Part shown: one piece after another, positions 3,713-50,514 of the stretch
Layout of the letters: every line of letters starts with the position of its first letter
Position numbering within the stretch: the first letter of the stretch is position 1
Source: Phoronis australis
Lineage: Eukaryota > Animalia > Phoronida
DNA length: 64,000 bases
Reading direction: 5' to 3'
Assembly (NCBI GenBank): GCA_002633005.1
Contig: NMRA01000734.1
Coordinates: 62,001-126,000, forward strand
Notes under the pieces: model-generated
Database searches by the model: none
Seen by the model: only the letters and a program-made list of their open reading frames with translations
What the model was told of the DNA's origin: nothing
Translations under genes and position numbers: made by a program

Positions 3713-3984
3713 TTAAGAGCTAATCTTGATGACTGAGCAAAAACATCTTGCCTGAACTTTACATTTTAGAGAAAATTGTCTTGCAACTGAGTACTTTGGA
3801 AATGATGATGGAAGTTTACAGACCTTTTTAACGAATATTTGAACAAGGATTCTGCAATAAGTTGGTATAAAAATCAAGCCTAAGCTCTTTCAAATGAAAA
3901 TAAGTTGTTTTCTGGATCTATTGAGCGGTCAGTTTCAAAACTGAACCCGATGACCTTTGTCCAGTGCAGATGAATGATTGGGTT

Positions 3985-18600: not shown

Positions 18601-21600
18601 ACTTCATAGTAAAAACATACATGCAAATTTTCACAAGTATCCTGAGAGCAGTTTGGTTGATAGACGAGTGGACGCCAAAAAACAGACTCAAAAACAGTAA
18701 AAATGGCCACTAGGTGGCGCAAACTAGGTCGAATCCATCTGAAAACGGAGAGATAGCGTCACCTAATTAACAGATGCCTGTATGCCAGATTTTATGAAAA
18801 TATGTTGAGGACCTTTGAACAAACAGAGGTAAACGTAAAAAAAATAAAATTGCCACTAGGTGGCACACCAGCAGTCAGATCCGTCTGAAAGTCGTCATCC
18901 TTCATTGTTAATATCACATAAATACACTTACTAAATTTAGTTAAGATCCTGCGAACGGTTTAGGGGATATAGCCATAGGCGCAAAAAAAAAACTGCCACT
19001 AGGAGGCGCCACAGTAGTCGGAAAATCATCGTCAGCTGTCCACTTCATAGTAAGAACATACATGCCAATTTTCACAATCATCCTTTGAGCAGTTTGATTG
19101 ATAGAGGGGTGGGCGCAAAAAGACTCAAAAACAGTAAAAATGGCCACTAGGTGGTGCAAACTTTGTCAAATCCATCTGAAAACGGGAGGATAGTGTCATC
19201 TCACTAATAGGTGTCTACATACCAAATTTTATGAAAATCCATTCAGGACTTTTGAAGATACAGAGGTAAACGTAAAAAACTAAAATTGCCATTAGGGGGC
19301 ACACCGGTAGTCGGATCTATCCGAAAGTTCGCTCATGCCGTTCCATCCATGGGAGGAACACATGTGCAAAAGTTCATGAACATACGTCAAGGCATTTTGG
19401 AGATAGAGCAGCGGAAGCCCGACGGACGGAGATGACGGCATAATGCGTCCACATATAAATATGTGGGCGCATAAAAATCAGCTAATAACGGCATATCTCC
19501 ATCTTTGTCAAATGCCATCAAGACTTGAGGTTAGAGATAATTAGCAAACAAGCTGAAGTAATTATAGACAGCGACAGTGTGAAGACTTCATGAAAATTAA
19601 GTGGACTTCACAAACTTGCAACTATCACTAAAGGAAACTTTCAGTTGGTAGTATGCTAACACAGGGAATGCTAATGGTCTTGTATTACACACACGGGCGT
19701 GGAGTCTATTCCTGATACTTGGCATTTTCTACATAAGTTTACTTTTGTGCAAACTCAAGATGATTATCTATAATTCTATGCACGAATATACAATAAATGG
19801 CTTAGGAGGATAACCCAATAATCCTAACATGCACTCAATGACCCATCATGGAGGCTAAAAGTTAAGAGTCTGAAAATGAAATCTTGAGTTTTTATCTTGA
19901 ATCTGGACGACATCAAATGTGAACTTAGACTACACCATTTTCATAAACCATAATGTACTCGACCACAAACTAATTACAATTATCTTGAGTTCACACGAAC
20001 ATAGCGTGGAAAATGCCAAAAATAATTTCGAGTTTCATTTTGAGAAGAAAGATTAGAACCTTGCCAATGGTCGCTTTGATTACTGGCCGTTAAAGGTAAA
20101 TACAATGCACATGTAAGAGTTTACCTCGATCATTTCCTCCACCCTTGTCGCTTTCTCATTTTTACCAACATCATTCAGGAACCTGACATATCGACAAAGG
20201 TCGTCCCAAAAAACATCGTGCTCATCACTACCCTTCCCAATATCTTTAGCGACAAATCCTTTTTCTTTGCATATCCGTAGAACACCATCAAATTCTTTTT
20301 CCGCATTCTCTACGTGCTTGGAATAATCCACTGAAACAAATGAGTCAACATGAAACATACAGTAATGCAGTACAGAAGCACTGGTCTAGACACAAAAATT
20401 GAGCAGAGAGTTCGTGGTGTATATGGTTTTATTGCCACATTTGGTCTAGAGTAAAACTTGCAAAATGACAGGCACAGAATCAGTGGAACCATAGGCAGCA
20501 ATCCAAATTACCCAACTACTATTATTGATTCATTACTGAAATGATAACATAATAACATAACACTAGACGAAAGACAATGGTAAAAAAATTATTGACAAGA
20601 AGCATGGTGACTCATAAGTCGTGGGTTTTCATGAGCTACGCATGAACAGAGTTGACTGATAATAACCCTGACAAAACCAAAAGATAGCGAGCACATCACA
20701 ATTGTGGTCATACACCCATGGACGAAGATAAGAATCACCCCCAACCCCATTAAAGTCGTAAGACAAAATTCCATCCACACACCCAAGTCAACACCAATTT
20801 TCCCATCGTGTATTGAAACCATAAACAACTTACACATTCTTACAATGGTTTTGAAATTATGAGTTCAAAAGAATTTCTCAAAAAGGTGTCGAACAACAAG
20901 TTTTGATGTAGGTTACTTACTGGCATAAATCTCATCTTTTTGGTACAAAAACTGGGCCAAAAAGCATAGTTGGTTCTAGTTTTAATTTAGGTGGCACTCA
21001 TACTTGCCAGACAATGTGTCACCATGATGCAGGCTTCAGTTGGGGGGGGGGAGGGGGTGGGAACTTCGTCTACAGCGCTGCCGTCATTTTTCAAATACAA
21101 TCTGGGATGGTTATTGGGGCGTAAACATTCGGTGACATCACAGATAACTTGATAAATGTAAAAACAACTTGTCCAAAGAACAACACTTATGCCTTGAGCA
21201 TAATACAATTGAAGGCACGGGTCTACTGTAACAAGCTTTTGGTGTATGACTGAACAAAAAGAAAAGACTGCAAGTTTCAGTGAAAGCGGGCCTCAAAATT
21301 CATGGAAAGAACACATACTTGGATCATTTGCATGAACATTTTTTGAAGCATGTGCTATCTGATCACACTGAAGTTAAATATCACCACCTAAAACGCAAAA
21401 TACAAATCAGATTGCAAGACCAAAGCTATCGATGACGTCACTTGATATATGTGAGACTAAAACAGTCCCACAATGCACCTAGAAGGCACCAGAAATTAAA
21501 TTTTGATGATTTAAATTTCAAACACTGAATGCTTTCAATCTGAAATTTTTTGAAAGTTGCGATTGTCAATCAAGTTGAAATTTTCCACGTTGAAAGCTGG

Positions 21601-24600
21601 CACATAATGGGAAGGACCACAATTTAATTAAAGTAAAAATTTTAATTGAAGTGGAACCATAGAGACTTCAAACAATGACAGTTTTGAGACATCCAGTTGA
21701 GGTAACAAAATACAGAAAAATTAAGTCAAATACTGGAATTTGTTTACTTGAGCGGTTGTGTCCGTCTCTTACGGACTTCAGCTTGGCTAGTGGAGTTCTC
21801 ATCATTCTGACCAAAAGGTGGCTTTTAACCAAACATGATTTAACCCCACCAAGGTGGTGCCAGACTATTCGGCATCAAGGTCAGGACAATATCCCATATA
21901 AGTGTGATGGAACCTTGATCCACCTTGGTGGATCAAGGTTCCATCACGACTGGTTAAAATGCCACCTTTTGGCCAGAACAATAATAACACTAGACAAGCT
22001 GAAATCCATGAGAGACGGATGCAACGTCGCTAACTCAAGCAAATTCCAGTATTTGTACTCATTTGTTATTTTTGTATTAAAAACTTTAAAAACTTAAAGT
22101 AATGCGTTCACAGATAAATATGTGGGTGCATTAAAAAACTTACTTGTGCAAACCCTCTCACGAGCCATGACGGTAAAAATACGTCCCAACAATATAGTGG
22201 TTCGTACTTGAGAAATAGGGTCCTCCTTCTTAAACTCATCACTTATTTTCTTGGCATCAATAGCATGCATAAGTGCTTCGCCAGTTCTGTCCTTGTCCAA
22301 ACAAAGGGACGTGAAGTTTACCAGCACAGTCACAGAACTACTGCTCTTGAACATGTGTAACAGTTTCAAAGTTTTGATAGCGTCATCATACCACCCAATC
22401 GCACATTTATACTCTTCATCACATGGATCGCCATTATCTTCCTTTCTCCTGGCAGCCAGGTGGTGATAGGCCCCAATGTTCAACATAATCTGCACAAGAA
22501 AAGGGTGAAGACCACTGCCGAGAATCTTGCGGGCCATCTCGTGCGTTTCGTAGTAAAAGAATTTAGCCTTGTCGAAGTGTTCACGATAGTCCGCAACAAG
22601 CGCCATCTGATTGTAAATGCGAACCACCTGGAATGTATTTGCAGCGTGCTTACAAATGCGAGGCCTTGCTTGATCAATCATATCTGACGCCTCTGCATAA
22701 TTCCCTTTAAGGCCCAACACCTGGGCTCGTATAAAACAATACTGTGCGCACAATAGTGCGTAGCCAATAAATTCTTTAAAAACTTTCTTCCCTTTAAGCT
22801 TCATAGCGGCAGCTGTATCATCCAACTGTCGTATTTCTGGCTCCATTTCATTCAGTATAACTTCCGCTTCTTTCCATCCATTCACGGTGTCTCGATATTC
22901 ATAGTGTTGATGAGCAATAAACAGGCGAACTAACAATGTGAATAAATGATTGCCACTGCTCTTTGCAAGGTCCAAGTACCTCTGAAAAAGATCTAAACGA
23001 TCCTTGTCTTGTCGAAGCAACGTTGGTGTCGCTAACAAGTTAAACAAATGCAAAGCTTTGAGAAAACTCTCTCTCGTGGAAATATCACCTAGTTTTATAT
23101 GACTGAGGTTATGCAGGGAATATTCGATGCTTCTATAGAAGCGAATGACCTGCAATAAGACGCGAGGATTTTTACCGGTCTCCGACTGTTGAGCTACATG
23201 TTCTAAAAATCCATGAAAGTAGGAACAAAGCCTTTTTCTGGCCTCATCAATCATTTGAATTTGACTGTCTGATTTGTCTACAGTTTTCAAGAAATCTTGA
23301 ATAAGCGATGGTACGTGAAATAAAATGTGTTTTGTACCAGGTACATCCTTGTTTGTGGCCTCAGCTACAGGGTAGCAGTCACTTATCACTAAGAAATGTC
23401 GTGAGCGTAAAAACTGGAGATCACTGTTAACATTAGATGTGATGTCGTCAAGAACGGTGCAGGCTGCTGGTGCATCAAATTCAGACAGAAACACAGAGAG
23501 TTTTAACAGCACGCTTTGGAACTGTGTGCCAAGATTCAAGTAGGCATGTTTGAGGATCTCCTCGACAGACACATGTCTGACCAGCGAACTTCCCTTGAGA
23601 AGCTTGACGAGTTCCTTGGGTTTGTTCACTTGATCCTGCAGTCGTTTACCCACCATTTTGACCAGATAGGGGTTCTGCTGGCACAGCCGGGCCAACTCAT
23701 CCAAATCCTCAACTTGTGCTACGTCAGTCTGCAAGCAACGACTTCAGAATGTCAAAGCAGTTTTTCCAAAAAATCTCAACACAGGCTAGAGGGAATTTTG
23801 CCACAGAATTGGCAGGAGGTGTCATGCTGCCAACTTGGCTGGGTATTTAGGCCCTTGAGGTATCGCCTCAGATGGGTATTTCTGATCAAATATTGCCTTG
23901 AGTTGACGTTTTGGCTTCACAGGTATTGTCTTAGTGGGTACTTTGGCACCTGAGGTATCATCTCAGGTAGGTATTTTGATTAAATATCGTTTGGAGTAGG
24001 TGTTTTGGTTTCGCAGGTACTGTCTTGAGTGGATAATGGAGGAGCAACCAGCAAGATTCATCAGTTCGGGTTAACTTCAAGCCCATTTTCAAGGATGCCC
24101 AGTTACTGAATTAGTCAACATTTTGAAAGTGGAGTGGCAACCCCGCCCAATATGTGGAAGTCAATTATCCACGTACACAGTCAGGTTCTCCTTTTGAGAG
24201 AGAAGTGTTATTTTGTCATTCCAATCTCATGTATCCTATTCGTCGTAATAACCGCCCATGCCCCTATAAGCGCCCCCCCCCCACGCGTTTTCCGACTTTG
24301 CTGAAATAAGCGCCCAGTCTATGCACGTATACATGCGAACAATGACGTACCTACAGTATTAAAACTCGGCTACAGTAACGTCTTCAATTTATCAAAAAAT
24401 TTTTGCACGGGTCTTCTAGACCACCAGCTGCACTGCTACTTTTGTATTTAGCCGTGACTTTACACTTCAAAGTAACGCAGCACTTCAAAAAGAACGCAAC
24501 AGCGTTGCTACGCTCTCACGACGACCATGTCCCACTACGGTCTGACCTTTCAGTAGACACATGGACTGTGTCTCATGAATAAAAATAACTCGGTGTTAAA

Positions 24601-27600
24601 CGCACGTGGCCAGGAAGCGCGCGCTACATACATGAACCTGTCATCAAAGACATTAGTCGGGAACTATCCATTCATGAAACGGGTAGCATAGCATCGATAA
24701 GAAATGAATATTGGCACTAATTTCCGACAATTTCTAATACTATAAAATATGTTTGCGTTATTTTTGAGATGGATTGTTTGATTAACCATAACTGGTGTTT
24801 TTAAGCCGAATATCCGATAAAATGACATCTGACAGTGAATGCTTACACACCCTTACACCGAAAAATAACTGTCAGAAAGTTATGTACGCATCCAGCTACA
24901 CGGCGACTAATATGGGCCTTACCGAGACAAATGTCGAAAGTTTTTAGCACGAGACCGGCAAGTGCTGAATAAAACACGCTCTGGTTTAGGCCTACTACTT
25001 GTGCAAATTTCTTTAAACACATCTAGCTAGTTAGATGGAGTGGCTCTGGCCAAAAGACGGTCTCTGCTTTGGCAAATGAACTCTGGTGACACGCACGCGC
25101 TCGCTTACTCGCAGACGAACTTCAAAACAAACGTCACGTGACAACAACATGTGTGTTCATCCAGACATTTTTCTCGCCGTGTTGCCGATTATACAGTCAT
25201 GTAGATGGCACGATGTTGCACAGATTTGTACTTAAACCTGCCGTTAATCCAGACTCCACGGGAACTTAAAAAATTTTTGAGACGCTACTTATAAAACTTA
25301 ATGAGGATTTCAGGTAATTTGCTTGAGTCGAAACCATTTTTTATTCAAGCATTGATTTCGAGGCAGTCAGTTGGCGAGTCTTCGCCCTGGGATTTCAGTA
25401 CAATTTTCTGTAAAATGATCACAATTTCGCAGCAAAGTTATAGCAATGCACCACAGTTTTGTTGAAAGTCTTTCATAGATTACATATACCAGGGCTTGGA
25501 ATGGCAAATGGAGAATAACACGGAAATTTTTACGGGCCGAAACATGCGCGCAGCCGGCCTTGAAAAAGTCGGGGCTTACCCTTTGCAGACAGAAATCGCG
25601 TCTGTCTTAGCTCGTCCGCCACTCCCGCCTCCAAACAATTTTGGCTCCATAGTCGTAGTATTTGTCACCGCGGTTTACAATCATACGAGCCGAAATCCAC
25701 CACGCTTTTCCAGATGCCCCGGCAATGTTGACAATTTACGTTCCTCCGAAACATAAAGAGCAACTTCCGCTTTTCGAGGTGTAAGTCGTCGGCAACGCGG
25801 CGGTAAGAAATTTGCCGTGGAAATTTTATACGAAATCCGATTTTTTTACGCGGAAATATAATAAAATACGCGGAAAGAACATTTGAAAAAACCGGAAATC
25901 CGCGTTTCCGCGGAAAATTCCAAGCCCTGATATACGTCACAGAGCGTAAATTTGATGAATCTTAGCGGGTTTCAACCGCCTTGGGTTATAATAAGTGCCC
26001 CCCCCGAACCGAACTTTTCTGAGCGCCCTGGGCGGTTATTACGGCGAATACGGTATGTACAATTCATGGAGTAGTTTCCTGATCTTAATTAACTATCAGC
26101 ATAATAGAGTGAAAACGGAAAAGCAGGGAATAGTTTGGCAGCAGTCCCTCTTGTGCGAAAAAATTTGTTGAATACACGACTGTGTTGTCTATTTAGACCT
26201 TCAGTGGACATTCACCCAAACTCTCAGTATATTTGACAGTCCTCCAAAGGGCAAGAGTAGACCGCCAATGGACATTGGTTCCAAAACGGATCTTTCTTTA
26301 ATACTATCATATGTTGATATATACGGGAGGGTACGATAAACACACCAGGTCCGGACAAACAAAAACATACCTCTCCAACTGCATGATCAAGATATCTCTG
26401 TAACAGTGCAGCACAATGAGGCACTGGTAGTTTACCCAGTTCCAGCTCCATAAGGATTCCTGAGAAGTGAGGTCGAATTCTGTCAGTGACATCAGGCACA
26501 CGATGCACACCACTATATTGGAACTTGTTGGTCGACGTCAGCAGCAGTTTGACCTGCGAATAAGCATTACGTCCGTGATCTGCGACTGGTGCAACTAGCT
26601 AGACCAGTCGCCCAATCACATCAGTGAGAACCATATCATTAATTTACGCTAGTACGGTCATGAAACTCAACCGGGACATTCTCTTTCACTACACTGTAAT
26701 CTTGCATAATCTTGCCAAAGTCACACAAAATTTGCCTTACGGAACACACCCCAGGTGCGCATCACTACTACGCTGGATATAACTATCACGTGACCTGGTA
26801 CGAATCATTGAAAGACACAACTGTGATAAGACCATCTTATGGTGCCATCACCTTCCATAACTGTGCACCAAACCATGACCCAGAAAAACTAAATACCTCG
26901 TAATTTTATTAATCTATTTTGTTACTGTACGCATCCTTATTCTCAGAGTTAAAGTCGGCATGACAAAATGCAGTGAAATACAAACTTGATCCTTGGAATA
27001 CTCGTCTCCATAATTCTATCGACATCTTGACATGATTGGCAAAGCAAATGATACGACCCCACAATGCAAAGCCAAGTACGCACGTTAGTCATTAATTAGT
27101 GATTCACAAACTAGCTTCAACTGACCAATCACAAAAGGGAATGCCTATATTCAAATTGCATTACATATCTGTGATCAAGATACATCTCATTGATTACATC
27201 TTGCTTTCTACACTTTTTCTGTCAATTTAAGGAGTTTTCTCCCTCGATCTTCACTCACCTCGTGCTTCAAAATTCTGATGATAAATTTATAAAACCTTTT
27301 TATCTTTAACCGACTTTCTGAAGAGAAACAAATGCTCAAAATCCATAACATTTTAAACGAAGTGATTTTTTAGGCCCTCAAAGTAGTAGAATGGGGGTAA
27401 ATCTGTGACAGTTCACAGTCTTCACTGACCACCACTGGACAAATGACCGAGGGCGCGTATCTAAATACCTTATTGTTTGTAATCCTACAAAGAATGTCAT
27501 GTAGATGATGCACAAAACATTCAAGTCGATCCGAATGACACAGGTCATCAACATCGTCCAAAAGAAACAGAGTTTCTGAAACACAACAAAAGGGATTTCA

Positions 27601-30600
27601 AACACTGTGACAAGGGAACACTCAGTACTCACAAGGTGGGGCTAATGCAGGAGGGACCGTTTTTCTTATTGGAATAGTCTAGACAAAGCAAAAGTGTTGG
27701 TGGGATTAGGGTCCCATGTGTAAATTAGTGGGATTAGGGTCCCATGTGAAAACCAGAATGCAATAATTTTTCAGTTTAAACTAGCGCCACCTATCACGTT
27801 TTGAGCTTCACGTGAAGCTGTATGTAAATGAGCTGATAACCCACAAGGCAGAGAATGCTAAATAAAATGGCTGAGGTCAAAGAAGCACCATTGGTTCAGG
27901 TCTGTACCCTGACTCATTTTGACACCTACGGTCACTTCTTAAAAAAATGCACCTGGCTGTTCCCTCACATCCATTTTGGTCAAGGTCTCGAACTTTTTTG
28001 AAGATCCCACAACGACACACAAGAAGGTTTCAAATGCCACTGCTCATTTTTTGACCAGTTAGGCACACAGACGCACGCACACGCACACACACACACACAC
28101 GCACACGCACACACACACACACACGCACACACAAAATGATGCAGAGTACTGCTCGTAAAATGGAGCCACAGTAGCCATTTTGCGTACGATTTCCGAAAAC
28201 AATAGGCCCCGAGCTTGAGACAATGCATATGTTGTGCGTTAATTCCATGCTCATCGGATCAGAAATGCAAAGGGAGTGAACGAAGAAACAAACACACATA
28301 TCTAACCTTAACAAAGTGATAAATACTGAGAACACCACACATGATGACTTTTTGACAAGCTAAACAGTTATTGATGACACAGGGCTTCAATGTGCAACGT
28401 ACCTTGTGTTATCTCCCTCAAGCAACATGCCAGTGAGGCTTTGAGATCACTTAGTGTTAGTAACTCATATGGAAGGGCCTCCACAGCTCTCAACACTTCA
28501 CTTAACATCAGTTCCATACGATCAACTCCACTGAAAGGACAAAGGGGAAATAATTTACAATATAAATACAATTCGGGATAAAGTGATCACTAAAACTGCT
28601 ACAATTTTATTTTACAAATTCTTACGGCTCGTCGTGCGTTGTGACAAGTGCTCAAAACTTGACCAAATGCTTGAAATTCTCATCTGCTACATTCAGTGCA
28701 AAACTGATCAAAAGTACTTTTATTGTATGAATGTGTCGTGAACAGCACAGTAAGCCCATGCCCCTGTTTTTTTTTGTGGAAAAATTCAGAATACAAGCAA
28801 ATGGGCGTACTTTTGATCATGACACGTTAGTAACATCTATGGTTTACAATATGGCCAGCGTCAAATAAGTCGAATAGGGTTTACAGTGAAGAATGTCACT
28901 ACCTTCGTATGAATACAAAAACCACAACACATTTCACTGAACTATCTGAAGTATATTATTTCGTATCTATACCATGGATTGAGAGTAAGTGAAATTTTAA
29001 TTTTTCATCAGATTCAAGTATTACCAAACGATGCTTTACGCCCAGATATAATGCTTTCCAGCACTTTCTGGGCTTGATTCTTATTATTGTTCAATGTATT
29101 TTTCATAATAATAAACATTAAAAAATGCTTTACCATGCTGAAAGCCTCATGAGGCGATTATCATTAATTTAACAAAAGCAACGCAAAGAACCGCAATGCG
29201 CCCATGACTGCAGTGCAAACGATATGCTTCAAAGGGCGTTTATTACAATCATAAAATTACTATTAGGTGGAGAAGGATATGTCGAACCTGTCCAAAAATG
29301 AAAAGGCCTCGTCACCTTCATAATAGGAACCGATTTGCCAAATTTCATGAAAATCCGCGCATGAACTCCAAAGAGAGAGAGGCAAATTTTAAGAAAAGAG
29401 AATTGCCAATACAAGACACAGAGGCAGTCAGATCCATCTGAAAGAAGTTGTCATCTGTTGTCGCGTTCATACAGGAATACACTTACAAAATTTCACAAAG
29501 ATCCAGCAAGGGGCTTAGGCGATACAACTGCGGATGCAAAAAATGCCACTAGGGGCGTCATAGTAGTCAAACCAGTCTGAAAATCTCCAACAGTCGTGCT
29601 GTCGTCAGTAGAAACCCATCTACTATTTTCTGAAAGATCTTTTGAGTAGTAGAGAGGCCGACGCTAAGAAACAGACTTGAAAATAATAAAAAATGGCTGC
29701 TTGGTGGCACAGACTACATCTAATGTGTCCAAAAATCTTGTCTCCGTAATTAATAAAATAATCTAGTTGCACAGTTTAATGATACTCTGTCATGACACTC
29801 AGAAGATACAGAAGTAAACACAAAAAATACAATTGCCACTAAGGGGAACAGCAGCACAGTCAGACCCGCCAAAAGGTTGTCATCATTAATTGCCACATTC
29901 ATAGATAAACCCTTGCCAAATGTCACAAAGATCACGCAAAGGATTAAGAAGATAAAGTTGCAGAAGCAAAAAAACAGTCGTCAGAAAATCAGCCGTGGTC
30001 TTCTGAGCTGGAACGCATCTGACAATTTTGATAACAATCTTTGGAGTGGTTCTGCAGACAAGGAAGAAGACTTCAAAAATCACAGATTCATAAATTGTGA
30101 AAATAATTCATTAGGTACTGGTGCAGAATATACAAATCCATGTGAAATTGAGAGTAAAGACCATGCAAGAGGTTAAGGAGATACAGGGAACACCGCAGTT
30201 GTCAGACTCATGTCAAAGTCAACGTCAGCCTTAATCTTCTCAGCAGGATCAGGTCTGCCAATTTTCATTATTCTTCAAGGGGTTTAGCATACACAGTGCA
30301 ACAGAGGCTGGACGCCCTAAGATGACCGCAATATGCACCAACATAACTATGAAAACGTGGGGCACAAAAAACAATATTTTGATGAAAAATTATGGGCATT
30401 CACAACTGTTGGAATTCCCTGAAAAAAAGGTAAAGGCAGATTTGATGATATGAATACATTGTTTTGAAACCGGTATAATATCTACCTAGCCGTTGCAATG
30501 CCACACACATTGTCTACATCCAGTATGTTTCAACGGCCCTAAGGTTCATGTGTTTTCATGCCTGGTCTTAGTGCTAGATATTTTTATCACTTTTGAATTT

Positions 30601-31982
30601 GGGAAAGCAAAATTCTATCACGATCGTAAACTACTACCATGAAATAATATAGCTCATGGAGATGAACTGGTCGCATTCCATTGGACTGAGGTTCTTGCGA
30701 AAAAGATGCAAGGCCCCACATGTATCAAGCACGCGATGACACTACCTTGTTCATGAGTCTACATTACATAGCCCTGTACTCACTTGAGATGGATTCTGTG
30801 CACCTCCCAATACAGCTCATGGCTCATTCTGTATACAACTTTCTGTGCCAAGCTAGTCTTGCCAATGCCTCTCATTCCACTTATACTGACAGCTGAAAAT
30901 GGAAATACCTTGATGTCAATGGGAGACCTTCAAATAGCAATGTGGTGATTTGTCACATGGGGCTGGATACCAGTAGCCTCTAAAGAACAAGGAGGAACTT
31001 TTGTTTAAAACAATCACGTCTAATCACAGACATTGTGAAAGTGTCTTTTCACAAAGGCAAATGATTCCCCCACACCATCCGCTGTGAAGACAAAGTACCT
31101 CCTGGTACAGCTAGATGGCGTTAAGAGTCACTGGTCCCATGTGATCAGCCCCCATTGCTTCTTGAAAATCTCCCAATCATCTCAATCCATGCAATCTAAT
31201 CTTCCACACAGAGATAAATTTTAGGATTACAATACATACTTCTGAGAGAGTTCACACAAAAAGAATTGATATATTGTTATTTTTAAGAAAACCCTCTACC
31301 TTGATACTGAAAACCAACATTCTGCTAGCGAGTTTTAGAATAGCACACTGTTGAGATTTTCACTAAAACTTAAAATTTCACTTCTCTATCATATCTTGTG
31401 CTAAATAAGAATGCTAGAAACCCAATTATCAATAATAAATGGATAAATGGTTTGTATTACCACAAGTGAATTTTTTGAATTGGACACTGCAAACAACTAA
31501 ACCCTTTCAAACAGATTACCTTTCACAGTACTGTCTTGAAACATTCCCATAATCTCTTCAATTTCTTTCTTTCTCCCAAAAAACATGTCATCATCTTTCA
31601 AACCTGTCTTCTCCTCATGTTCAGCACAATCTCGCAAGTAATCAGTTAGAATCTCATGTATCGGCATGTCGAGGTACCTTCCATGACTCATATGTCTACA
31701 ACCCATTGTGCGGAATGCATTGATGGAGACATTAATAGCCTTCTTCTTGCCCATTTTTTCTATCAGTGTATCGAATACTTTAGTGGTTGTCATGACTTCA
31801 TCTTCACCTTCAAACTCCTTCCACAGGCGGTGGTAGTCTGCTTTTCCCACCTGTTCAGCGATGAGACTTAAGAATCGCTTTCTGTCCTCTGCCAACAACT
31901 CGCCTTCAATCTCGTCAATTATGACTCTCAGCGGATCAATCTGAGTTGGGTTCGAGCCCACAGGACTTGAACAAGACGCCAT
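12521..31982 (-). CDS. STAND/NLR-like protein A (death-fold-like N-terminus, NB-ARC-type ATPase, TPR repeats, acidic tail), about 1014 aa, 10 coding exons
   Basis: Exons 31982-31520, 30892-30784, 28530-28403, 27575-27469, 26553-26371, 23728-22144, 20330-20125, 17070-16983, 16530-16480, 12645-12521. All GT-AG, phase-consistent, summing to 3045 nt. Motifs FFGRKKEIEEI, Walker A VSISGMRGIGKTSLA, Walker B LFLLDDVD, KLLLTS, LCQQNPYL, LSVFLSEFD, TPR-like helices. Confidence 0.88.
13300..13975. repeat. 33-bp minisatellite (AGGAACAATCCCTGTAACAGTGGATGTGATGTA), about 20 copies, in the last intron of gene A
   Basis: Contiguous near-identical units with occasional 2-bp deletions and degenerate ends. Confidence 0.95.
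15493..16208. mobile_element. Non-autonomous TIR element (MITE) with 5-bp TSD
   Basis: TIR CTAGGCTCG(T/C)GCTAG; GCACC duplicated at 15488-15492 and 16209-16213. Confidence 0.7.
16480..16530 (-). CDS. Gene A exon 9 (51 nt)
   Basis: ttttttag acceptor and gtaagt donor, symmetric phase 1; DSEEEVVSRPKIQKQDS. Confidence 0.7.
16983..17070 (-). CDS. Gene A exon 8 (Ser/Asp-rich)
   Basis: Strong polypyrimidine acceptor; SLNIGVPIPKSDSESSSSDGD, similar to paralogue GSPIAGTDSEHSRSSSSS. Confidence 0.75.
17765..19477. mobile_element. Helentron-associated (HINE/DINE-like) non-autonomous element with internal tandem repeats of about 145 bp
   Basis: Sub-terminal inverted repeat ATGCGCCCAC (17792) / GTGGGCGCAT (19463); terminal stem-loop 19443-19472; GACG microrepeat before it; A-run ends. 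Confidence 0.7.
20125..20330 (-). CDS. Gene A exon 7
   Basis: 206 nt, FVAKDIGKG..HDVFW; paralogue 206 nt, FLAEDIGRG..HDYNW. Confidence 0.85.
22144..23728 (-). CDS. Gene A exon 6: HD1/winged-helix and TPR repeats
   Basis: Lies within the 546-aa ORF; acceptor ttgcag, donor gtaagt. Confidence 0.92.
24234..26053. mobile_element. Tc1/mariner (pogo/Tigger-like) non-autonomous element, TA TSD
   Basis: TA|tcctattcgtcgtaataaccgccca ... tgggcggttattacggcgaatacgg|TA; subterminal ataagcgccccc repeats. Confidence 0.75.
25490..25929. mobile_element. hAT-like MITE nested in the mariner-type element
   Basis: TIR CAGGGCTTGGAA / TTCCAAGCCCTG; ATATAC flanks both ends; many internal cggaa repeats. Confidence 0.75.
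26371..26553 (-). CDS. Gene A exon 5: sensor-1/RNBS-B region
   Basis: 183 nt, VKLLLTSTNKFQY...IRPHFSGILMELEL; donor gtatgt. Confidence 0.88.
27469..27575 (-). CDS. Gene A exon 4: Walker B (LFLLDDVD)
   Basis: 107 nt, ETLFLLDDVDDLCHSDRLE; paralogue has ETIFFLDNVDQLCHSDRME. Confidence 0.88.
28063..28133. repeat. (CA)n/(CACG)n microsatellite
   Basis: Direct inspection. Confidence 0.9.
28403..28530 (-). CDS. Gene A exon 3
   Basis: 128 nt, GVDRMELMLSEVL...; matches paralogue exon size and sequence. Confidence 0.85.
29171..30370. mobile_element. Second, more diverged HINE-like element of the 17765 family
   Basis: Start aacaaaagcaacgc...aatgcgccca; internal gccactaggggc and cagtcagatccatctgaaag units; end ...gtggggcacaaaaa. 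Confidence 0.6.
30784..30892 (-). CDS. Gene A exon 2: Walker A (GMRGIGKT)
   Basis: ttttcag acceptor and gtgagt donor; 109 nt, same size as paralogue exon. Confidence 0.9.
31520..31982 (-). CDS. Gene A exon 1: death-fold (PYD/DED-like) domain and start of NB-ARC
   Basis: ATG at 31982 just after a tttcag acceptor; donor G|gtaatc; ends ...MFFGRKKEIEEIMGMFQDSTVK. Confidence 0.88.
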
Positions 31983-34273
31983 GCAGCCTGAAATCTAATG
32001 CATTACAGAACATTGACGTAAACAGACGACCTCCATGGAAAATAGAGGCAGGTGAGTATACTAGTCAGGTTTGTAGTTGGAAGGGCCTACAGAAGGCCTC
32101 TGCCGGAATTTCCAAAAATAGACCCATACAAATGTACACCCATGGTCGCATTTTCAGAAAATTTTTCCAAAAATATGCCCATGTGCATATTTTTGGTAAC
32201 TGTTCGCAAGATATTTTGAAAAATCGGAAGGATTGTTCAGATATTGGGTGACTGTTGCTATACTCATCGTATTAGCACAGTATAAAGGATGTCCAATTTT
32301 GGCAACACAGTTTCTGAAAATACGCCTGAGCGTATATTCGGTTTCATTTGACGTTTTTAAAAGATTGTTTTCCAAATATCCATCCATGGGTACATTTTCG
32401 GAAATTCCCGGTAGTAATAGACTAACCTTTGGCCACTTGGTAGGCGTTTTCCCTCTTAGACAGGGGGAGCAAACACAAAAATGAAATGAGTTTCAACTGC
32501 GGCAGGGCTCTTTTGCAATGGCCCTGTATGGCCCCTCAAGGCAATGCTAGTGTTGGTAGTCACAGGAAGATACTTTTAGAGGGGTGTCAAACAATGATAC
32601 GACCTTGAACATGGTTTCGCGCACTGTAATTTGGTTTTGGCCTCAATGCCTCAATAACTATTCCTGATTACCCTGGTTGAATTAAGCAGGGGTCTGACAT
32701 GACATACCACAATATATAACTTTTAAAGAGCTATTCCATACATCTGGACACCAGGATTATTAGGCCTTAAAGGAACAGGAGACCGGCGTTTTACCGTTGA
32801 TGAAAATCAAATTGAATGTTTTGATAGTTTCAAATTTTCCTAACAAAGGAAGAACTTGTTTGTCTTACCAAGAAGAATGTAAAAACCAACTACAGGTAAA
32901 AATAGCTGAATTCATGAATTGTCGTGAGATGGTGTGAGGTTACTGATTGAAAATCACATAACAGATACTAGTACTCTGTGACCCGGGGCTTGTTTGGAAC
33001 TATTTTGTTTCAACTAATTCCACAACAATTAGGGTTGCTCATGCAGACATAGTAATGTTTTTGAAAGCCAAAACTCTTTGGCTAAGAAAAAGATGTTTAA
33101 AGCGACACCTGACCAGCTTTAACCAGTTGTAGCTAAAATGGTTGTATCTCTAATTTTTATAGGCAAACAATTCAATACCATGCTTTATGAATGCAACTGA
33201 ATGTGAACTACAGTTACAGCAATGTTTGCCTCTTACAAAACCTGCAATGTAGGTTTTGCAATAACATGCCTTTGACTGGCTTGGCTAAGACTGGACCCCC
33301 TCGCTATCAAGCTGCTAGACTGTTTTTGTTATTGTATTTTTCCACTAAATTATTCAAATATCATAGTACCAATCTACAAACATTGTTTTTCTCTCAACAC
33401 ATACTGCGAATGTTATCAAGCTTGTCCAATTTCGTTGCAGAAATTATCAATATGTCATCAACACTTGCGTTCTTGGGATGATATGGCGTAAAACTAACAC
33501 TAGTACAACTGAACTGAACTTCAACAGCACTCATTTTCAAAATACTGTAAGTAATGTTCATGCTGCCTATTGTATACCACCATGCAGTCACCTGTGCGAT
33601 TTTATTTATATCTATCTATTCGGCAGCCTCACGGCATGTATCATACCCTTGACAAAGAGCGCATTGCTCGAAACGTGGGGAACATTTCAATATATTTTAG
33701 TACTCGTAGTTTTATTTTTACTAATTCATATTCTTATCCATCAGTAACTGCACAGCATTCTAGCATCTATTTGACTAATCCATTTTAACTAACATTGTCG
33801 TATTAACACATTTGGTTTAATTTTGTTTTAGTTATAGTAAGCAGCTGTGAAATGATTCTGTTTAAAATGAGCGATCGGAAGTTCGTAGAAATGTGTCTAA
33901 AAGAAGAAACTTTTCAGTTGAATTGTGCAGAGATTTTACCAGGTTATAAGCGGAGTGGCATGAGAGAAGGGAACAACTTTTGCCGTGGGGCAGCAGTGAA
34001 TAAATGCGGGGGCAGAATAGGTTCTGCCACGAGCAAAGAGATTGAAATGTCCACGAGATGCAAAGTGGTCCGGGAGACAGATTAACGCATCAGGGAGAGA
34101 GGACAATCAGCGTGCGCAAGAGAAGAATTTTGCCCGAACCACGCACAGGCCAGGAAGTCTAAGTGCCTTGAGTTCGGTGACCATGAGTCATGACCCATCT
34201 ATTCTATTTACATTCAACCTGTTCAAGGCACCAGTGACCAGTTGCATAAAACAATCACCCACTACTTCCATCA

Positions 34274-34380: not shown

Positions 34381-35065
34381 CGGTCATCTCTTCCTAATAC
34401 AGACAGTCAGTTGACAAACGAGTAAAGGCCTAACGGAAAGATAGCTGAGGACGCCTGTGGTTAAAGCAGTCTAGGTGGCCTGTTGGTAGGCAATGCAATC
34501 GCCGGCACACTAACAATCTAGGTCAAATTAGAGACTGTATACTGCGCAAAACAAGATCATTAATATTCAAAGACTATCTGTAATGCTCTTGGCTAGCTAG
34601 GCAATTACATCGCCTGGCTAACTGAGGGGCTACGTGGTGCCTATTCATTGCCATTGGCTTGACGCGCTGCCCGACTATCGATCATCAGGCTTAGTTGGTA
34701 GGCTACAATCCGATTACATCATAAATAAGATTACCATAAACACACGTCATCGGAAACTACGCTTCTTCTCATCTTCAAAATTCCAAATAGAAAATACCTG
34801 TATTCGACAGCTGCACGATTAAGAGTAAAACTCTATTGTTTCGTGTTCCATAAATGTCGTCGGTGGACACCGACTGCGGTCCTTGGCTTGGGCTAAAAGG
34901 TCAATCGAAGCGCTCCAGTCGTTGAGGGGCGCTGTTATCCCTCGTCCGCCGAGTCCCTTCGCTTTCAGTCACCAGGTGGCAACAAAGAAATAGCTATATT
35001 TGTCTTGATTCAGTCATGCGGTCTCGTCCACCCTTCCGAGTCCAGGCAGCTCCGGACCCAGTCTG

Positions 35066-40049: not shown

Positions 40050-40935
40050 TAGCATTGGCAAGCGATAGAGTTACAGGCGATGAGAAAAGTGCCCGAACAA
40101 GCCTTGAATCAGATACCAAAGAAGCGTTGAAAAAGTCAAATCGAACAAGCATTGACAAAGTATGAAGAAAGTCCTGAATTCCGAATGCAGATTTGTTGAA
40201 CGCGACCACTTAGAAGACGGTACGCCGTCAGATGTCACCGAGTCAACTGAATCTACAGCTTCAGAGAAAGTGTACCCCTTCCACAAACAAATATGATTCT
40301 GATGATGGAAAGAGAGAAGTCCTGGAATGGAATGGCAGAAACAAATCAGGTGACGTCGAAGATGTTCAACAGGATGTAATCCAACCTTTAGGTATAGCTG
40401 TGTTCACTAATGATGTTAATAGTAATGAAAAGGTCCTGAAATCTGGAAGAAAACTCGTTCAAAAGGACTACCAAGAAAACGTCACGAAGTCAGATTTCAC
40501 CGAGTCCACCGACTCTACATATTTGGAGGAAGTGTGCCCCATTTCCACAAAGAAAGATGAGATGGGGAAGACAAATGTCCTTGACAAGACGGACGTGCCT
40601 CATGATGGAGAAAGAGACGTCCTGAAATTGAATGGTAATGGCAAACTAGGCAACGTTGACAATGTTTCACAGGAAGTCAACCGACAGTCAGGTACCGCTA
40701 GGTTCGCTGACGATGCAAACAGTACAGGAAAGTCCTGAAATCTAAAGAATACCCCGTTCAAGATGACTATCTTGAAGACGTCAAATCCAATTCTAGGACT
40801 TAGCTGATTGATGAGTTCGATGACGATGCTGATCGTAAGAGAAAGTCCTGTCCACTTAGAAGACGTCACACTGTCTGATTTCAATGATTCGACTGAGGCT
40901 ACAGTTTCCGCTGCGATTGGGGAAACCTTTACATA
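40050..40935 (+). pseudogene. Decayed exon encoding an acidic protein with internal repeats of about 90-100 aa
   Basis: Repeated peptides KVLKS..(V)Q.D(Y/H).E(D/N)V..SD(F/V)TEST(E/D)ST and DG.R(E/D)VL..NG..K.G.V..V.Q.V, broken by frameshifts and stops around ORF 40232-40738. Confidence 0.5.
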
Positions 40936-41043
40936 GGACACATGACGCTCCACATCTAAGACTCTGTGCAGCAAATCCGGCAGCGTCGAAAGTGTTATTA
41001 GAAAAAGATAGTAAGACAAAAACAGAATTACAAAATGAAAGAC

Positions 41044-41172
41044 AAATTTAAGTAATAAGCAAAGAATAAGAAATTTTAATTTCTTATTCTTTGCTTATTA
41101 CTTAAATTTCAGTCTTTCCATGTTAAAACATTCATCAGTCTTTCCATGTTAAAACATGGAAAGACTGATGAA
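41044..41172. repeat. Two adjacent perfect palindromes (32-bp and 20-bp arms) plus a short direct duplication
   Basis: 41044-41109 and 41131-41172 are self-complementary; 41109-41130 duplicates part of the second. Confidence 0.9.
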
Positions 41173-41788
41173 GCAAAATAAAAAATAAAATATGACAAAT
41201 AAAAGATAAATAAACTAAGGCAAGATTATAAACTAAAAATAAAAAAAAAATAAAAAATAATAAAAAATCGTGCAGAAAGTTTGTGAGACAATGAGAGACG
41301 TTCAAGTAGCAACTTGGCGACTGGTCACGTGGGACCAGATACCAGTGGCCTCTAGAGGACGAGGAGGCATTTTCCGGGTTATATGTTTTGTTTAACACTT
41401 ATTCGGTGCAATCGTATTCACTGTAAAAGGGTCTAGCTGTAAAGATAAAGTAATTTCGTGGTTCAGCTAGGTGGCGATATGAATCACCAGTCCTACGTGA
41501 ACCCCCCAATTGCTTCCTGTAGGTCTCCCATTCTTACAGTTTAACAAAAGGTGCCTCGGCACTCCTCAGCCAACAAACAACAATGTACACCTTGTGAGAG
41601 GTGAACAGAGTTGTTTCAGTTTCTTGTGAAGTAACCTATGAGTTAAAATGACATTCACTTTCAATCTCATGAACAGTTTTAAAACTGCTAGAATAGGCAC
41701 CTGTAGGCACCGAGTATAAACGAGAAAACACTTAAACCGTTTTCCTTACATAATGCACAAGTTTTCAGCATAGTATCAACTACAAGTT

Positions 41789-42044
41789 ATCTACAATACA
41801 TTTTGAAACAATGGTTCCCACTTGTCTACATTGAACAAGTACGCCAACACACATCTACAATACATTTTGAAACAATGGTTTCCACTTGTCTACATTGAAC
41901 AAGTACGCCAACACACATCTACAATACCTTTTGAAACAATGGTTCCCACTTGTCTACATTGAACAAGTACGCCAACACACATCTACAATACATTTTGAAA
42001 CAATGGTTCCCACTTGCCTACACTGTGCAAGTACGCCAACACAC
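41789..42044. repeat. 64-bp tandem repeat, 4 copies, just downstream of the gene B stop codon
   Basis: Units start at 41789, 41853, 41917 and 41981 (atctacaatacattttgaaacaatggttcccac...). Confidence 0.92.
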
Positions 42045-42215: not shown

Positions 42216-42343
42216 TTAAGGCTGATCCATGAAATTGCTTCCTTCTTCAATTACTAAGCTTTCTTGCATGAATTCAACACTTCGTGAAGACGAGTCCTCG
42301 TCTGCGACCAATCGAGGTATCTTTGGCGGCAAACCTTGCATTC
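42216..42343 (-). CDS. Gene B last coding exon
   Basis: ttttttgcag acceptor; GMQGLPPKIPRL...FMDQP-stop. Confidence 0.75.
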
Positions 42344-45300
42344 CTGCAAAAAACATGTATAATAATAGTAACACATACAGCCAAACCAGAGTGTAGTATC
42401 CTTGCAAAGTAACGATGTGTAAAGGCCAGGGTGAATAATTGTAAACAGTTTCGGTGCATTTAAGTGTTCGGCAGTCGAGAGGCAGCCGTGACACGATGTA
42501 CACGTATATGGAAACTGTCTGGACATAAAAGGAACGTTTGATGTCATTTGTTTTTGGCCAAAATATGAGTACTACGAGTACGAACTTTATAATCTGATTT
42601 AGGTAATCTTTGTGCCGATGGCGGAGACTCGAGACATTCACCGGACAAAGTTGTGACCGCAGGATGGTGTTCGTCGAAGTCGTACGCTGAAAGCCTGTTT
42701 GTGCGAGGGAACTGACTACAAGTTGACCGTGTTAATGAGAAGCTGGACTCTAACTCAACGTTATTAACTTGGGTGCCCTTGGAGAGTGCTCGACCTTCAG
42801 TTGTTATTCAGTTTATTTGCACAGATTGGTCCCAGTTCCATGTCGATGGCATAATATTTTCCGTTTTAAGTCCCCCTGCTTCTAAAAATACACCAGGGCT
42901 GATATTAGAGCTCCTAGAAAGAGAAAGGTTTCGCTGCTTTCGTAATGTGCACCGTGGGGCTTACCAACAAAAAGCGCCTCTGGATGAGAACAGAACGTGA
43001 GTGTTTAAATAGCAAAAAAGTAGTCTACTTTGCAGATTGATTGTGCAGGAATGCATCAGGCCCACTTACATAAAAGTTCTACAGAGAGACTGTTGAATTC
43101 CGGTTGATCATTGGGACGCCTATGATGTCAGCCAACACGGTTGACACCGAGCACCTAAATATTCTTGATATTTCACCCAATCACGGCAGTTATCTCTTTT
43201 ACACATAACTTAATTGGTAACAAATATTTCACAAATTTTGAGTATAACATAATTCTAGGGAACAACTTCTCTATGTATTATAAAGACACCAACGCACGAC
43301 AACAGCAAGGTTGACCGGGACGGCACTAAAAGTTAACTGTTATGTACTCACCTTGCGCAGATCATCTAACTCGTACTGAAATGACTTCAAAGTTTGGGAA
43401 GAACAGATGATTCATAAATGCTAGAGACCTTGCTGGAGAAGTTGATATGGCCCGCATTTCATCATTTTAAATAAAGTTATAACCAAGTTCAGAAATCACT
43501 CTTAGAGACTTGGGTCCCGTTCCAAGAAAACTGGCTTAGCTAAGACAAATATTAAATTCAAGCAAATTTTAAGATAAAACTTAAATTTGTCTGAAGTCCT
43601 ATACAAAAATACTTTTTGACTAAAAATGTGTATTAAATTTGACGCAACTTACCGGATGTAGAAGTTCGGAGGTTGAGACTTAATTAAGTTATAATAAACT
43701 AAATTTAGTTTCTTGGAAAGGACCTCAGACTTGTAACAGTGCGTGACCTTGCTTAAACGACAGAAGGTAGGTTTATAGCATTCTATGAACCCACAATGCA
43801 TCTGTTATTGCCGTCTATCGTGGTTTCTATATTTTAGCATAAGGTACAGCAGATGTTATCGCATCGCTCACATTCTGTATGGAAAGAAACTAAGCTGTAC
43901 AACTTTCCGAATGAAATGGTGAACGCATGTCCTACTACTAGGCGACAATCATTAACTTATAAATAAATAAATACAAATATTAGAAAAGATAATACGAACC
44001 CGTGTCTTCGCCCATAGGTGCGTCGCAGTCAGGCGAAGATGATGATGATCTCGAATGCTCAGAGTCTGTTCCAGCAATAGGGGATCCATTTTCCATGTTC
44101 TGAAAAGGAAACAAATGCGAGCCATGCTCAACACGTCCGATGCAATTTATGAATATAGTTCGTCACTTACAACCATGAGTCACCGCCAGAAAAAACAAAT
44201 CTTTGATTCACAAATCCTACTATAGACTCAAAAAACACGGCTTACCCAACCCGAAACACAGCTCAAGGGCTCACATTAACGCCCCACGGACTCTTGTTGT
44301 ATTCTTCAACTTTTATTCTCAGTCTTATAATTGCTTACCGTGGTAGAATTCTATTTCAATCACCAACAAGAACACGAAAACCATCAGCGACTCAAGAAAA
44401 TGCCTTGCACTTTATTCGGGTTGGCCAACCCAGAAATGGAGCATGTATGCATTGAACTGTGACTTGAGTTACCAAACGAAAACTAATCCTATCATGATAA
44501 GGAACACTATGGGAACGACTTTATAACAGCAAAGGGGCCGATTCGATTTTCGCTTTTTAGCCAGCTAAACAAGGCGATTTAGGGCTTTAAGAGGTAAAAC
44601 ACACAAATGATTCCGAATTACAGCAAAGTATAGTGTTCGAAATAAAAAAGTGCAAATTCAAACTTCGTTGTCCACAGACGGCAGAGTGAAAGTGTACACC
44701 TTGTCTAGACGTTGTGTTTGCGGTTAGAGAGCAGTGGATGTGAGTCCGTGAGCATTGCTTTTTTGGAGCGTAAGCCTTGTTTCGTGTGCTCGTACACAAG
44801 CTTGTAACTAACAGTGCAGCAGACCAAGAAAAATAGTGGGGATGGGACGTTTACATGAAGAAAAAGTTTCTTGGTGTACGCATTGTAACTTGGTGTTGAT
44901 ACAATGCCTATGTTATAATGATTAATTACATAATAATAACCGTATAATTAATATAGTCGCTAGTACACATGCATTGATGAGAAGCAGGAGAAGGTGCTTG
45001 ACAAGTGCGTTGCATTGTGGGTAAATGCATTAGAACGAAAGTAGTGCTGTGCTGCTACAGGACGAGTCATTTTATTGCATCTGGAGTAAAGGCCAATATT
45101 TAAGATGCAAAATCAATAAAATTCCTCCGCCGTGTTGGGGCAACACAAAGCGAACAATTATAAACAAAGGGCGGTGAATCTGCCGTTGACTTAATCCAGC
45201 AATCTGAAATTATCAGGCAATCGCCGGCCTATATCAAAGCAACGACAAGCACTACCTGCGTTATTAAAAAGGACAGAACTTTTAAGCAAAAGAAAAGAAA

Positions 45301-48300: not shown

Positions 48301-50514
48301 GCCTCACATATGGTAATAATGCATGAAAGTTACCTTGTCATTTGACACTCTAGCCAAAACGTCTCTCAAGTGCTTAAAAAATCCTTCCATACGATCGGAA
48401 TGACAAAGTTGGTCTACGTTATCCAGAAAAAATATGGTCTCTAAAAATAAAATAAGACAAATCTTTGAGTACGATAAAACATATTCGAACAACAATTTCA
48501 AATTTACTGTACATACTGAAAGATAATTAAAGAACTTATCGAGAGCACTACATACCGTATATGCAAGTGTTCAGGCCCACAAACCTGTTTGTGAATCTGT
48601 GCCTATTTTCAAATTGAAACATCTATCTGTGAGCAAACATTTGAACAAAACCAAAACAGCAAAATATTCAAGATGAAGTCTCAAAAATGCTGTTACAGTT
48701 TTCTAAATTTTTGTTTTATGCAACTTTGAATTTGGGGCAGATTCTTTTAAATAGTTAGAAAATTAAAACCAGTACAAAACCCAATTGCTAGTGTGCAAAG
48801 AATCGTTCTACTTTGGTGCAGAAAAGTGTACCGTACCGCTTTCGATCAACTTCAGCTGATGAATCACTGCAGCTTTGAGGTCATTTGTTGACAACATTTC
48901 ACAGGGCAGAACGTCCATCACACTCAGAATTTCGTTGAACATAGTATCAACGGATGTGGCTCCTCTGCTCAAGAAACAATACACTATATAAATATGTATT
49001 ATGGCAACAAATTTTCTATAAGACAGGTTTTGTTAAGCACATTTCCATTTGCACTTTAAAATAGCCGCAGTGGACAGTCTCCCCACTATTGGCGGCAACC
49101 AGATCTTTAGCACAAGTTGTACCGTGCAATGTAGCCATTCTGTGGGTGATCTATCTCCTTTGTGTCTCTTTCATCACGTGATCACCGTGTAAAGGATCGT
49201 CCATGATGCTCTTTCGAGGGAGACGATTTACCGGACCATTTCACTGCACCGACACCTGGTGCTAGGTCCGATTGCCGCCAAGTGGAGACAAGACTGCGGC
49301 CTGGACAGTTTTGCAAGCAAAGTTTTCAAAAAAAAATTAGAATGTGCTACTTTCACAATTTTTATGAAGCATATCTGAATAGCCTTTACGAATACTCAGA
49401 ATAACAAAATACAAATCTGCAGTTGCATTTCAGCATTCAAAAATCCACAGCTTTTATCTTTTTTAAAAGGAATCGCACAAGGACTTTTAAAAAAGTCCTT
49501 TTGCGATTCCTTGACCCCAGGTCGTACGTAAATTAACAGCAGGCTCCAGAGCAAAATGTCACAAGTCTAGATACTGATATAACTTTCTGTAAGCACATAA
49601 ATTAAAATGAAACATATCCCACACAATTATTGTTGCCATGTCAAATGCTTGTAGAGAACGAATGAAATCCAATTAACACTTACCGCAAACATATTTTATA
49701 CACACCAAAATGGCACTTCCAACTCATCCGATAACAAACCTTGTGGGCCAACGCAGTCTTGCCCACGCCTCTCATACCTGTGACACTGACAGCTGAAATT
49801 ATGAAAAAAAAAACATATGAGGAGTAGGTGTTTACAACTTACGTTTGTGGATATTTTTAGCAGTTAGGGTCATCCAGAAATGATTCGAGAACTGTTCAGC
49901 AAGGAAAAGTGAACTTCCAATGGTGCTCGATGACTGAGAACAAAGAGTAGTGTTTGCTTTCATGGCTTTCTTGAGTGTTCAGAATAGTACCTCGAGTTTC
50001 AATATTGCTGACATGGTCATTACATCATTTTCACAATATCCAATTAATCATTACCTCTAACTTTTGCTGTCTGGAGCAATTCCATAACACTGACAACCTC
50101 TTTTTCTCTTCCAATGAAGAAATCCTGATCTTTCAAGCCTGTCCTGTCTTCATGTTTCTGGCGATCTTTCACATAATTACAAAGAATCTCGTCTATTGGT
50201 TTGCCCTGATGTTTTCCATGACTCATATAAAGACCCATTTTGCTGAATGCATTGATAGAGAGATCAACTGCCTTGGTCTCACCCATTTTATCAATGAGGG
50301 TATCGAATACTTTAATAAATGCAGTGTCACCATCATCGCCACCAAGCTCCACTTGCAGACGGTGGTGGTCTGCCGCTCCAAGCTGTTTTTCAACAAGTCC
50401 TAGGAACCTCACGCGTTGATCGGAGTGCAGCTCTCCCTGAATGTCATCAATAATGTCCCTCAGGGGGTCAACCTGAGTAGGATGGGTGCCCACTGGACTT
50501 GAGAATGACGCCAT
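42216..50514 (-). CDS. STAND/NLR-like protein B, paralogue of gene A, about 988 aa, 9 coding exons
   Basis: Exons 50514-50055, 49792-49684, 48964-48837, 48440-48334, 47903-47721, 47298-45753, 45557-45352, 44099-44000, 42343-42216 (2967 nt, in frame). FFIGREKEV, Walker A GMRGVGKTALA, Walker B IFFLDNVD, KFLFTST, LSLFQSVFD, TPRs. Confidence 0.88.
43512..43726. mobile_element. Small AT-rich MITE
   Basis: Imperfect TIR GGTCC(CG/T)TTCCAAGAAA / TTTCTTGGAAAGGACC; AGACTT flanks both sides. Confidence 0.55.
44000..44099 (-). CDS. Gene B exon 8 (Ser-rich)
   Basis: tttccttttcag acceptor; NMENGSPIAGTDSEHSRSSSSSPD. Confidence 0.72.
45352..45557 (-). CDS. Gene B exon 7
   Basis: 206 nt, same size as paralogue exon. 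Confidence 0.85.
45753..47298 (-). CDS. Gene B exon 6: HD1/WHD and TPR repeats
   Basis: Lies within the 539-aa ORF; collinear with gene A exon 6. Confidence 0.92.
47721..47903 (-). CDS. Gene B exon 5
   Basis: 183 nt, VKFLFTSTNTVQY...IRSHFSGTLQELEL. Confidence 0.88.
48334..48440 (-). CDS. Gene B exon 4: Walker B
   Basis: 107 nt, ETIFFLDNVDQLCHSDR. Confidence 0.88.
48837..48964 (-). CDS. Gene B exon 3
   Basis: 128 nt, GATSVDTMFNEILSVMDVLPCEMLSTNDLKAAV. Confidence 0.85.
49067..49300. mobile_element. MITE-like element with imperfect inverted ends
   Basis: gccgcagt..tctccccact..tggcggcaa / ttgccgccaagtggaga..actgcggc. Confidence 0.45.
49684..49792 (-). CDS. Gene B exon 2: Walker A (GMRGVGKT)
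   Basis: 109 nt; tttcag acceptor and gtaagt donor. Confidence 0.9.
50055..50514 (-). CDS. Gene B exon 1: death-fold-like domain
   Basis: MASFSSPVGTHPTQVDPLRDIIDDIQGEL..., strongly similar to gene A exon 1; donor gtaatg. Confidence 0.88.

Follow-up and report, generated by a model that had tools for sequence, protein, structure and literature searches.

Two tandem paralogues on the minus strand

The 64-kb stretch of DNA analysed here, called the window at its full length, carries two paralogous genes on the minus strand, gene A and gene B, whose products are predicted to combine an N-terminal death-fold domain, a likely NB-ARC-type STAND NTPase and TPRs. By comparing two regions of the window, we matched seven coding exons between the genes, and RNA reads added a 5' non-coding exon to gene A.

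34798..34830, minus strand: non-coding exon at the 5' side of gene A, mapped from its 3' end (34798); from RNA read ends and a GT donor
31520..31994, minus strand: gene A exon 1 (first coding), ATG at 31982, residues 1-154; whole predicted death-fold domain and the pre-P-loop FxGR
30784..30892, minus strand: gene A exon 2, P-loop GxxGxGKT, residues 160-167; splice seen in RNA
28403..28530, minus strand: gene A exon 3; RNA joint 27575/28403
27469..27575, minus strand: gene A exon 4, Walker B, residues 237-242
26371..26553, minus strand: gene A exon 5, sensor-1-like strand; join to exon 6 from loose read ends
22144..23728, minus strand: gene A exon 6, helical and winged-helix STAND part, then TPR; minus-strand RNA depth
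20125..20330, minus strand: gene A exon 7, whose C-terminal segment shares 28% identity with that of gene B; predicted junction, with a further exon or read-through to a stop possible
50055..50514, minus strand: gene B exon 1 (first coding), paralogous domain, residues about 17-121
49684-49792, 48837-48964, 48334-48440, 47721-47903, 45753-47298 and 45352-45557, minus strand: gene B exons 2-7, predicted; AG/GT ends, phases as in gene A

The frames of the N-terminal domain lie at 31524-31982 (-) and 50056-50514 (-), and their translations contain the sequences quoted in a preliminary description of this DNA, whose interval 31620-31982 corresponds to residues 1-121 of gene A and whose exon 1 of gene B agrees exactly with ours. 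All modelled introns have AG/GT ends and range from 0.1 to 2.8 kb, their phases are equal in both genes, and exons 2, 3, 4, 5 and 7 are identical in length (109, 128, 107, 183 and 206 bases). The models are stop-free over 927 codons (gene A) and 913 codons (gene B), counts that refer to the modelled part of each gene, and the proteins are 48% identical over 907 aligned codons. For the N-terminal domain, dN was 0.32 and dS 1.17 over 105 codons, and dN/dS ratios are rough because synonymous sites are saturated across most of the gene. Pseudogenes were ruled out by the stop-free frames and the purifying selection. Genes A and B form an intact tandem pair of paralogues, and a search of the window found no third copy of the domain. 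The window has a GC content of 40% and an observed/expected CpG ratio of 0.73, values more in keeping with the mosaic methylation of an invertebrate than with the global methylation of a vertebrate. Open frames at 42216-42807 (-), downstream of gene B exon 7, could be further exons of a disordered tail.

Transcription of gene A

We used RNA data from three raw runs (18-19% of each was read) and one small contig set (32 Mb); the splice-read mapping spanned 26100-33400, which is part of gene A. The results showed that the intron between exons 1 and 2 (30892/31520), with minus-strand GT..AG ends, was spanned by 14 RNA reads (2 + 2 + 10) in three of four runs. Three reads spanned the joint of exons 3 and 4 (27575/28403), and the joins of exons 2-3 and 5-6 were found in the loose ends of 4 and 16 reads, respectively; the exon 4-5 join was absent from the RNA joints listed for the mapped interval. 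Over the exons, the depth came from first mates on the plus strand, the pattern that most stranded libraries give for a minus-strand RNA, and it was low, about 0.2-6 per bin. Gene A is transcribed from the minus strand at a low level, and its N-terminal domain is fused to the ATPase exon.

Four RNA reads joined the 5' exon to 31994, and their loose ends (at 31996) matched 34800-34817 uniquely. This exon has an in-frame stop 8 codons before the splice; therefore, the domain is N-terminal in that transcript, and an upstream coding extension of gene A is ruled out. Low minus-strand RNA depth also runs on through the 5' intron at 31995-33400, which may reflect intron retention or an alternative start.

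STAND ATPase and TPR body

In the spliced translations of both genes, we recognised FxGR, a P-loop (residues 160-167), Walker B (237-242), a sensor-1-like strand and helical/winged-helix motifs, using the motif patterns of NB-ARC proteins. The P-loop exon of gene A matched nSTAND3 (E 1.4e-4), NB-ARC (E 4.5e-4) and NACHT (E 3.5e-3) in Pfam, all under the cut-off. The NTPase is likely an NB-ARC-type STAND, its placement there over other STAND clades coming from these motifs, and the Pfam scores above are those of exon 2 by itself. Both genes have VPS (A 468-472, B 462-466) at what we take to be the position of the NB-ARC MHD motif, and Thr (A 272-277, B 271-276) at the presumed place of the usual sensor-1 Arg. 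Apaf-1, CED-4 and Dark likewise couple a death fold to an NB-ARC switch, and differ at this presumed MHD equivalent. The Walker B of gene B reads DN in place of DD; together with VPS and the sensor-1 Thr, it could point to a change in how the nucleotide is handled or to a division into helper and sensor.

Exon 6 matched Pfam TPR_12 in gene A (E 1.6e-5) and gene B (E 2.7e-11). The fusion to an NB-ARC-type STAND and TPRs in the preliminary description thus agrees with the spliced reads of gene A, the motifs in both models and TPR_12. A bona fide NLR is defined by NACHT and C-terminal LRR (PMC3879445), and the tail of A and B is TPR; their products may function as NLRs do, but they fall outside this definition.

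The N-terminal domain is likely a six-helix death fold

Over 125 aligned columns, the N-terminal regions of A and B share 56% identity, which extends to the MSHG loop and to the last helix, PI.EIL..Y, both pointed out in the preliminary description. AlphaFold modelling of gene A predicted the following elements.

31617..31934, minus strand: predicted six-helix death fold, residues 17-122; AlphaFold from a single sequence, mean predicted local distance difference test (pLDDT) 59.9; VIA-align
Within it, predicted helices in the AlphaFold model of gene A: H1 17-28, H2 31-45, H3 47-58, H4 66-77, H5 79-93, H6 108-122
31692..31793, minus strand: helices 4-5, residues 64-97; sole part with a PYRIN-profile match
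31662..31703, minus strand: H5-H6 loop, 13-14 residues; MSHG common to A and B, without RxDL

The six antiparallel helices of this predicted model superpose on known death folds, following the description of the fold in PMC11874512, and death folds made up 47 of the 50 VIA-align rows listed. VIA-align aligned 82-95 of about 110 residues to single PYDs (pyrin domains) or DEDs, and the 13-14-residue H5-H6 loop is characteristic of the A/B pair. The best-conserved block is H4-H5 (residues 66-94, 29 codons), with 66% identity between A and B against 48% for the whole protein. In model A, a 12-residue H3 follows directly after H2 (pLDDT 56-69 there); model B lacks H3 and has a long loop instead (pLDDT under 50).

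By ESM features, gene A scored 0.90 with both PYRIN and DED, three DED clusters ranked first for gene B, and Death clusters reached 0.79-0.80; PYRIN and DED labels overlap in known ESM clusters, as they do in PMC11258412. A 65-residue bacterial ESM Atlas cluster (113 members; where a record exists, they are mostly from Bacillota) scored 0.84 to both domains, under 0.9, and serves as a lead only. CARD and DD identities were ruled out, since both scored below PYD and DED structurally (pooled p=3e-4, indicative because the rows are related structures) and the Death clusters stayed at the values above. Matches to RhoGAP-FF1 and DNA polymerase epsilon were rejected as partial and without structural support. 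Because three methods, the Pfam profile, ESM features and structure comparison, converge on the death-fold clan, these results suggest that the domain is likely a six-helix death fold, in line with the preliminary claim.

Among searches for homologues, exon 1 gave nothing usable against longer proteins and, against 1.84 billion representatives, three matches that were all repeat-driven artefacts. No usable homologue was found with exon 6, either as a single query or as a two-sequence profile; none of five exact look-ups succeeded, and metagenome, viral and prokaryotic contigs held no homologue. PDB chains gave no significant match by sequence and a viral fold library none at E<=0.001. This absence of homologues is weak evidence because the searches were word-limited or used two sequences.

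The domain scores between PYD and DED

The reading that fits best is that A and B encode NLR-like intracellular receptors with a divergent death fold of the PYD/DED branch, likely a subfamily of its own, followed by the NB-ARC-type STAND and TPRs; we hold it with middling confidence. Among 12 scanned open reading frames (ORFs), an unrelated one scored E 5.7e-4 on another Pfam family, and a model of a bacterial DNA polymerase matched the domain of gene B at E 1.5e-4. By itself, the Pfam PYRIN E-value is therefore not beyond chance.

Instead, the domain could be a strongly diverged ordinary DED, as in the DED-NTPase receptors of cnidarians, sea urchin and amphioxus, with the PYRIN score arising as cross-talk between the two most similar families; it would then recruit DED caspases or FADD-like adaptors. 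We consider this doubtful. When the A/B domain is compared with DED (PF01335; FADD, caspase-8, cFLIP/vFLIP, PEA-15), DED and PYD tie by structure, the family means of Z being 7.76 for PYD and 7.60 for DED (p=0.89, with p-values indicative because the rows are related structures), and in ESM features DED is level with PYD or ahead of it. The DED of invertebrate DED-NACHT/NB-ARC receptors, among them amphioxus DED-ASC (PMC3196919, PMC2575513), occupies the same architectural slot. However, Pfam DED gave no match at E<=10 in either domain or in any of 7 sub-fragments, a listing from which HMMER filters drop most matches above about 0.1 and so hide weak ones, whereas H4-H5 scores as PYRIN. The E/D-RxDL charge triad at the start of H6, described as conserved in DEDs, for which an H2/H5 hydrophobic patch is described as well (PMC4558505), is absent from residues 17-122 of both paralogues. 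In the structural alignments, identity averaged 15.1% with PYDs and 12.6% with DEDs (p=0.085), and the best-probability Foldseek rows for model A were PYDs (0.63, 0.60) against 0.33 for a DED, none of them significant.

A genuine pyrin-lineage domain in an invertebrate is also conceivable, namely a surviving PYD/DED intermediate on an NB-ARC-TPR receptor, in which the helix 4-5 surface of PYD would be older than vertebrates and a matching adaptor or caspase would exist in the same genome; we judge it unlikely.

Improbable in our view is a true PYD homologue outside vertebrates, which would make PYDs older than reported or derived from such a lineage and would nucleate filaments of the PYD type together with an ASC-like adaptor yet to be recognised. 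PYRIN was the top Pfam family in both paralogues, with up to 21.1 bits (E 3.4e-4) in A and up to 16.0 in B. The pyrin-like second half of the preliminary description was reproduced: residues 59-98 alone (40 residues) gave 20.7 bits (E 4.6e-4) on PYRIN positions 40-73, with 34 residues on 34 positions in the most conserved part of the domain, and the full match of gene A, 69 residues on 65 profile positions, fits the H2-H4 spacing of the profile. PYDs took 5 of the 6 top VIA-align rows for model A and the top three rows in a further comparison, and with the poor model of gene B, Foldseek placed the NLRP4 PYD first (E 2.2), PYDs taking 5 of the 45 listed rows and DEDs none. Yet both scores lie under the curated PYRIN (PF02758) gathering threshold of 22.9 bits, and in Pfam scans of sub-fragments the signal came wholly from residues 64-97, with neither a PYRIN nor a DED match in residues 17-58. 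A helical hairpin of 34 residues can converge. The structural difference between PYD and DED is not significant, ESM favours DED in gene B, and the long H2-H3 loop and short or missing H3 that mark PYDs (PMC11874512) are not seen in model A, where confidence is low at H3. Published surveys report no invertebrate PYD (PMC11508797, PMC2858798, PMC2575513). The structural tie, the ESM ranking and the silent first half thus do not bear out an assignment to PYD over DED. Nor was the converse seen, a much better match to DED or CARD than to PYD, which would have counted against the preliminary description.

That the domain is an unrelated helical bundle merely resembling a death fold is highly improbable: the models are of low confidence, model B has no death-fold match, no PDB chain matched significantly by Foldseek or sequence and a weak FF-domain Pfam match appeared (E 0.003-0.02), but three different kinds of method agree on the death-fold clan, nearly the whole structural list of model A consists of death folds, and the domain sits at the canonical position in the protein.

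Returning to the divergent PYD/DED-branch death fold, 'new death-fold subfamily' describes the domain best, likely as neither a standard PYD nor a standard DED; of the two options first proposed, PYD-like or new subfamily, the second fits better, and the assignment to PYD is not supported.

Other features of the window

A gene fragment of a Core-2/I-branching beta-1,6-GlcNAc transferase lies at 422-1453 (-) and 1701-1916 (-) (Pfam Branch E 1.4e-27). High-copy interspersed repeats occur at about 17300-19500, 24300-26100, 29250-29970, 30917-31167 and 41289-41373, several of them within introns of gene A; DNA depth over them is very high, and RNA reads map there too. Between A and B, acidic, internally repetitive open frames at 40214-41050 (+) had no Pfam match and are possibly an exon of an unrelated gene. 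Minisatellites lie at 3979-5100, 13288-13975 and 41789-42044, with units of 26, 33 and 64 bases. Rfam gave 0 matches and ARAGORN 0 genes in the window, so neither supplied a marker of the host's taxonomy.

Discussion

Compared with vertebrate PYDs (PF02758; NLRP, AIM2, ASC, POP1), the A/B domain stays below the Pfam cut-off without a signal in H1-H3, has a full H3 in its model and carries the 13-14-residue H5-H6 loop. The vertebrate partner is NACHT-LRR, whereas here it is an NB-ARC-type NTPase with TPRs, in a probably invertebrate host; the novelty of a PYD-leaning domain depends on that host. Apaf-1 has a CARD head and a WD40 tail (PMC2575513), and CARDs score lower for the A/B domain. The NACHT/NB-ARC repertoire of the coral Acropora digitifera, with CARD/DED/Death heads and LRR/TPR/ankyrin/WD40 tails, is likewise tripartite (death fold, STAND, repeat) and includes tandem pairs from lineage-specific duplication (PMC4083563), so the receptor design of A and B is one already known from invertebrates; A and B differ in having no detected homology to any database protein and a head not assignable to a described family.

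No PYD is reported outside Craniata (PMC11508797), and PYD is called vertebrate-specific (PMC2575513) and is proposed to have evolved from another death fold (PMC2858798). DED and PYD are treated as distinct groups of families, in which CASP8 and ASC subgroups are enriched in chordates (PMC12066828), and death-fold totals by phylum are given in the supplement of PMC11874512. The portions of PMC10155998 and PMC12292325 available to us added nothing on invertebrate PYDs, and the literature searched, mostly outside subscription journals, held no description of an invertebrate PYD or of the A/B domain family.

A mechanism can be proposed from known STAND and death-fold biology (PMC11874512, PMC8195603): a ligand or damage signal sensed by the TPRs would lift autoinhibition, and exchange of nucleotide would cause the proteins to oligomerise. 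Once clustered, the death folds would seed a helical assembly, as in related systems (PMC11874512, PMC8195603, PMC13012725), and this assembly would recruit an adaptor or caspase whose own DED-like domain matches, leading to cell death or immune signalling. In the NLRs and ASC-like adaptors of amphioxus, DED fills the place of PYD, and binding of these DEDs to a caspase is reported (PMC3196919); a DED-like stand-in for PYD is the role that would be expected of the A/B domain on this analogy.

If the domain is only a divergent DED, the pair adds one more lineage-specific NB-ARC-TPR receptor. A further suggestion from this result is that divergent death folds in the receptor repertoires of invertebrates escape profile-based surveys. 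The PYD-origin papers cited (PMC11508797, PMC2575513, PMC2858798) name no intermediate in their accessible portions, and a domain whose scores fall between those of PYD and DED, in a conserved receptor with expression seen for gene A, offers a concrete test object for the origin of PYD.
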